A stretch of 1,133 nucleotides of DNA from Escherichia coli (lineage in GTDB: Bacteria; Pseudomonadota; Gammaproteobacteria; Enterobacterales; Enterobacteriaceae). The stretch lies in assembly GCF_003334405.1 (NCBI RefSeq), contig NZ_QOWM01000047.1. One strand, given 5' to 3'. Position 1 is the stretch's first letter. Each line of letters begins with the position of its first letter. A model generated the notes under the pieces. The model was not told the DNA's origin and did not search any database. It saw nothing but the letters and a program-made list of their open reading frames with translations. Below are positions 1 through 1,133 of this stretch, piece after piece. The translations under genes and the position numbers were made by a program.

Positions 1-1133
1 AAAAACTGGATCGACAAAGAAGAATATCCGCAATCCGCAGCCATCGACCTGCGTTGCGTAAATATGGTTGCCGATCTGTGGCATGCGCCTGCGCCGAAAA
101 ATGGTCAGGCCGTTGGCACCAACACCATTGGTTCTTCCGAGGCCTGTATGCTCGGCGGGATGGCGATGAAATGGCGTTGGCGCAAGCGTATGGAAGCTGC
201 AGGCAAACCAACGGATAAACCAAACCTGGTGTGCGGTCCGGTACAAATCTGCTGGCATAAATTCGCCCGCTACTGGGATGTGGAGCTGCGTGAGATCCCT
301 ATGCGCCCCGGTCAGTTGTTTATGGACCCGAAACGCATGATTGAAGCCTGTGACGAAAACACCATCGGCGTGGTGCCGACTTTCGGCGTGACCTACACCG
401 GTAACTATGAGTTCCCACAACCGCTGCACGATGCGCTGGATAAATTCCAGGCCGACACCGGTATCGACATCGACATGCACATCGACGCTGCCAGCGGTGG
501 CTTCCTGGCACCGTTCGTCGCCCCGGATATCGTCTGGGACTTCCGCCTGCCGCGTGTGAAATCGATCAGTGCTTCAGGCCATAAATTCGGTCTGGCTCCG
601 CTGGGCTGCGGCTGGGTTATCTGGCGTGACGAAGAAGCGCTGCCGCAGGAACTGGTGTTCAACGTTGACTACCTGGGTGGTCAAATTGGTACTTTTGCCA
701 TCAACTTCTCCCGCCCGGCGGGTCAGGTAATTGCACAGTACTATGAATTCCTGCGCCTCGGTCGTGAAGGCTATACCAAAGTACAGAACGCCTCTTACCA
801 GGTTGCCGCTTATCTGGCGGATGAAATCGCCAAACTGGGGCCGTATGAGTTCATCTGTACGGGTCGCCCGGACGAAGGCATCCCGGCGGTTTGCTTCAAA
901 CTGAAAGATGGTGAAGATCCGGGATACACCCTGTACGACCTCTCTGAACGTCTGCGTCTGCGCGGCTGGCAGGTTCCGGCCTTCACTCTCGGCGGTGAAG
1001 CCACCGACATCGTGGTGATGCGCATTATGTGTCGTCGCGGCTTCGAAATGGACTTTGCTGAACTGTTGCTGGAAGACTACAAAGCCTCCCTGAAATATCT
1101 CAGCGATCACCCGAAACTGCAGGGTATTGCCCA
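1..1133 (+). CDS. gadB: Glutamate decarboxylase (PLP-dependent, group II decarboxylase family), internal fragment truncated at both ends; about residues 82-458 of the 466-aa GadA/GadB protein
   Basis: Frame 1 on the + strand is open across the whole window (377 codons, no stops). The translation matches the E. coli GadA/GadB sequence as I recall it, including the SxSGHK PLP-lysine motif (codons at 568-585), the IDIDMHID segment (463-486) and the C-terminal region [17 protein letters not shown] (1081-1131). Codon usage (CTG, CCG, GGT, CGT, AAA rich) is typical of E. coli. GadA and GadB differ almost only in the N-terminal residues, which are outside this window, so the gadB symbol is a guess between two paralogs. 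Confidence 0.96.
568..585 (+). other. PLP-binding active-site motif S-A-S-G-H-K; the Schiff-base lysine codon AAA is at 583-585 (Lys276 in GadB numbering)
   Basis: Direct translation of 568-585 gives SASGHK. An S-x-x-x-H-K motif carrying the pyridoxal-phosphate lysine is characteristic of group II PLP decarboxylases. The residue number follows from window codon 1 being Lys82. Confidence 0.85.

Follow-up and report, generated by a model that had tools for sequence, protein, structure and literature searches.

What does this 1,133-base stretch of E. coli DNA (the window) encode, and does the part of the gene that it covers carry an intact active site? Our data place the window inside the E. coli gene for a PLP-dependent glutamate decarboxylase, most probably gadA, of which it covers codons 82-458. 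We put this identification as a decarboxylase gene fragment at about 97%, and nothing in the window speaks against it. The gene is already known, its function is textbook knowledge, and the residues considered below have already been defined by crystal structures and mutagenesis.

Frame +1 of the 1133-base window is open from end to end, with no stop in 377 codons, which bears out the stop-free frame that the original prediction had described for residues 82-458. The other five frames contain 9, 19, 14, 11, and 1 stops, and in mononucleotide shuffles (n = 2000) the longest open run had a mean of 124 codons and a maximum of 303. The protein translated from the window matches crystallised E. coli GadB at 100% identity over residues 82-458 (1PMM_A and seven further entries, E~1e-269), and GadA over the same residues (1XEY_A); the match to an N-terminally truncated GadB (2DGK_A) is also 100%, at residues 68-444 of that chain. 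Numbering taken from the crystal chains sets window codon 1 as Lys82 and codon 195 as Lys276. Profile searches place the protein in the same family: the NCBIfam equivalog TIGR01788 (“glutamate decarboxylase”) scored 597.9 bits (E = 9.8e-180; curated cut-off, 380.4) and aligned with the truncated query from profile position 67 to 430 of 431, and Pfam PF00282 (Pyridoxal_deC, the group II PLP-dependent decarboxylases) scored 332.3 bits (E = 4e-99) over model positions 66-375 of 375. Codons 1-81 and 459-466 lie outside the window, and with them the start and stop codons, the N-terminal segment, Thr62/Phe63, and the His465 plug.

The one other frame with few stops raises the question of whether the plus frame is a real gene at all, or whether the functional element is instead a structured RNA or the 178-codon ORF that an ORF scan finds on the minus strand (574-1110), in a frame (minus frame 3) with a single stop in the whole window. 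We give this idea practically no chance: the plus frame is a 100% match to a crystallised enzyme, only gadA is annotated at this place in complete genomes, and alleles differ by synonymous changes when read in the plus frame. A GC3-rich coding frame (GC3 is 0.64 here) is moreover expected to have long antisense shadow ORFs opposite it, and an Rfam scan of both strands at E-values up to 1 returned no match. The minus-strand ORF is most likely such a shadow of a GC3-rich gene, with no annotation or RNA family behind it. A repeat search of the window found nothing meaningful, the only hit being a 14-nt imperfect palindrome at 654-673, of a size that arises by chance.

The original prediction had placed the PLP Schiff-base lysine, Lys276 of an SASGHK motif, at positions 583-585, and an IDIDMHID segment containing the conserved Asp243 at positions 463-486. 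Translation of the plus frame returned both exactly there, with AAA as the lysine codon and Asp243 as the last residue of its segment. To relate these and other residues to a plant homolog, we aligned the chain sequence of Arabidopsis thaliana GAD1 (AtGAD1, PDB 3HBX), residues 82-308, to the window. The resulting features are:

Positions 1-1133, plus strand: internal fragment of a coding sequence for glutamate decarboxylase (codons 82-458 and 2 nt of codon 459), identified from the open frame, GadA/GadB identity, TIGR01788, and PF00282.

Positions 13-15, plus strand: Asp86, which at acid pH moves into the active site, where it binds the distal carboxylate of glutamate (PMC12961736).

Positions 133-138, plus strand: Ser126-Ser127 of a GSSEA motif, in the loop that binds the PLP phosphate; Ser127 aligns with AtGAD1 Ser127 (PMC11357613).

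Positions 244-246, plus strand: Gln163, on one face of the PLP ring sandwich; aligns with Gln164 of 3HBX_A, called “Gln163” in PMC11357613.

Positions 391-393, plus strand: Thr212, a cofactor-binding residue; aligns with AtGAD1 Thr213 (PMC11357613).

Positions 463-486, plus strand: IDIDMHID, residues 236-243 by translation, ending in the conserved Asp243.

Positions 484-486, plus strand: Asp243 (codon GAC), the probable carboxylate partner of the PLP pyridine nitrogen; aligns with AtGAD1 Asp244.

Positions 490-492, plus strand: Ala245, which covers the PLP ring on the face opposite Gln163; aligns with AtGAD1 Ala246 (role from PMC11357613).

Positions 568-585, plus strand: SASGHK, residues 271-276 by translation, with Ser273 and His275 ahead of the Schiff-base lysine; His275 aligns with AtGAD1 His276, a cofactor-binding residue (PMC11357613).

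Positions 583-585, plus strand: Lys276 (codon AAA, numbered from the crystal chains), which forms the internal aldimine (Schiff base) with PLP (PMC12961736); aligns with AtGAD1 Lys277.

The original prediction had named alignment to a GadB crystal sequence as its check. Since the window is 100% identical to crystallised GadB over residues 82-458, every PLP-contacting residue that falls within it is the same as in the solved enzyme: Ser126/127, Gln163, Thr212, Asp243, Ala245, Ser273, His275, and Lys276 are all present, as is Asp86. The S-x-H-K motif around the Schiff-base lysine, characteristic of group II PLP-dependent decarboxylases and fold-type I PLP enzymes, appears here as SASGHK. That Lys276 is the residue joined to PLP, as predicted, is stated directly for the E. 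coli enzyme (PMC12961736).

For the role that the original prediction gave to Asp243, the support is indirect. IDIDMHID contains three aspartates (residues 237, 239, and 243), of which the last is the relevant one. In fold-type I PLP enzymes, the partner of N1 is an aspartate that lies some 30-35 residues N-terminal to the lysine, and Asp243 is a conserved aspartate about 33 residues ahead of the Schiff-base lysine. Its surroundings are also closely similar in the plant enzyme (HIDAASGGF in the window, HVDAASGGF in AtGAD1). In the AtGAD1 structure, PLP is bound to Lys277, its ring lies between “Gln163” and Ala246, and Asp244 forms a salt bridge with the pyridine ring; Phe63, Ser127, Thr213, and His276 of AtGAD1 are described as occupying the same positions as in GadB (PMC11357613). 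Homology to Asp244 and the general rule for fold-type I enzymes together support the proposal that Asp243 pairs with the pyridine nitrogen of PLP. We argue by way of AtGAD1 because the open full-text literature that we searched, whose reach does not extend to the primary GadB structure papers, yielded no relevant paper naming Asp243 of GadB. A mention of Asp243 in PMC9081730 belongs to ornithine decarboxylase, not to GadB.

AtGAD1 belongs to this family too: over residues 82-308, it shares 117 of 226 aligned residues with the window. It differs by a one-residue insertion before Gln164, and by a calmodulin-binding C-terminus where the bacterial enzyme has the His465 plug (PMC11357613). Position 163 of 3HBX_A is a valine and the glutamine is residue 164, so that “Gln163” in PMC11357613 appears to be a numbering slip.

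The PLP-dependent conversion of L-glutamate to GABA and CO2 (EC 4.1.1.15) has been demonstrated for the identical protein (PMC12961736). On established knowledge of this identical enzyme, the protein encoded in the window is predicted to work by the glutamate decarboxylase mechanism. Lys276 would hold PLP as an internal aldimine until glutamate displaces it by transaldimination, giving an external aldimine. With its pyridine nitrogen protonated and held by Asp243, the ring would then act as an electron sink for the loss of CO2; a proton would be taken up at C-alpha and GABA released, so that each turnover would use one cytoplasmic proton. This proton consumption, together with the GadC antiporter, is the basis of glutamate-dependent acid resistance (AR2). 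Above about pH 5.5, His465 attacks the Lys276-PLP imine to give an inactive substituted aldamine, and the enzyme is locked (PMC12961736).

E. coli K-12 carries two genes for this enzyme, gadA (b3517, PDB 1XEY) and gadB (b1493, PDB 1PMM/1PMO/2DGK). Their proteins differ only at residues 3, 5, 6, 9, and 22 (Q3, L5, L6, F9, and A22 in GadA), all outside the window; over residues 82-458, GadB shares Lys276, Asp243, and its remaining PLP contacts with the window. The choice between the two genes falls to the DNA. Over nt 244-1376, gadA of K-12 MG1655 and gadA of strain E2865 both match the window at 100%, and K-12 gadA shows no difference from it in DNA or protein; in these two strains the identical copy is an intact 1401-nt (466-codon) gadA lying between ccp and gadX. 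K-12 gadB, which is placed upstream of gadC, differs from the window at three sites (window positions 399, 456, and 936), all synonymous. We also compared six further gadB alleles from various E. coli lineages, sampled across the range of identity, which differ from the window at 2, 5, 12, 18, 22, and 29 sites. Nucleotide differences thus number 0 to the gadA of MG1655 and E2865 and 2-29 to the seven gadB alleles, a small sample (n = 7) of genes between which gene conversion is possible. As none of the seven gadB alleles is identical to the window, gadA is most probably the better call, resting on three synonymous sites and this small gadB sample.

An origin in gadB, the copy upstream of gadC, or in a collapsed assembly of both paralogues is unlikely, though it deserves weighing. 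GadA and GadB are identical in protein over residues 82-458, the gadB differences can be few (three sites in K-12, two in TA8571), and through gene conversion between the two copies a gadB allele could come to match the window exactly. The edges of the window also fit such an origin: at gadA nt 244 and 1376, they lie immediately inside the differences between K-12 gadA and gadB at nt 243 and 1377, as expected for a shared core, so the window corresponds to the near-identical core common to both paralogues. Against this, 0 of 7 gadB alleles matched the window exactly whereas the MG1655 and E2865 gadA genes did, and among the matches listed in complete genomes, all 14 contiguous 100% matches (14/14) are annotated gadA. 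Were the fragment from gadB or a collapsed assembly, neither the encoded residues nor the mechanism would change. The position of the edges would fit a short-read contig of a collapsed repeat, or a window chosen at a repeat boundary.

The gadB alleles also speak to selection. The 88 nucleotide differences in the six further alleles lead to only two amino-acid changes (D384E and D153N), and codons 243 (GAC) and 276 (AAA) are invariant in all seven gadB alleles compared. Such almost purely synonymous variation indicates that the protein is under strong purifying selection. The differences are partly clustered, for example at window positions 204-222 and 792-810 in IHE3034 and GPEC403-625, and recombination or gene conversion, whether between lineages or between paralogues, may account for this patchiness.

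A further question is whether the source copy is intact. The original prediction had argued for a functional gene rather than a pseudogene and limited that claim to residues 82-458, a limit that was rightly drawn; beyond the window, we infer that the gene is complete and functional in the source copy. The window has matches in all 5426 of the complete E. coli genomes (5426/5426), with a median of two places per genome, corresponding to the two paralogues. At least 80% of the window is covered at a place in 5420 of these genomes, and six have no such place. With one exception, every copy that we inspected is complete at 1401 nt, its one stop codon standing at the end. The exception is strain TUM10008 (NZ_CP135658.1; positions 1258-3435 of locus L010 from it), where gadA is split by IS1A 36 nt into the region equivalent to the window; each of the two pieces matches the window at 100% identity and is annotated as a pseudogene fragment. 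Identity of a fragment is thus by itself no proof of an intact gene. Both gene ends lie outside the window, and a disrupted source copy with its lesion beyond these 1133 bases could be imagined on the model of TUM10008, or of the six genomes in which coverage of the window stays below 80% at every place. We consider this highly improbable, given the near-universal coverage among complete genomes, the complete 1401-nt genes found at every inspected place but one, the lack of any lesion within the window, and the almost purely synonymous variation, which points to selection on the protein.

Taken more broadly, an atypical source copy, whether a rare plasmid-borne or multi-copy instance or one disrupted outside the window, is very unlikely; if it were true, an intact active site here would be no sign of a functioning gadA on the chromosome. 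Among complete E. coli genomes, plasmids carry six of the places that match the window, and the number of places reaches 10 in one genome. In strain LR-31, a record of 3722 bp (NZ_AP027522.1) carries a partial “pyridoxal-dependent decarboxylase” at its end. The plasmid places, the 10-place genome, and the LR-31 record may represent assembly fragments or mobilised copies.

Since gadA and gadB are among the best-studied genes of E. coli, the finding carries little weight as a discovery. Its value is one of annotation: the fragment can be labelled as glutamate decarboxylase, probably gadA, codons 82-458, with the active site intact within the region seen.
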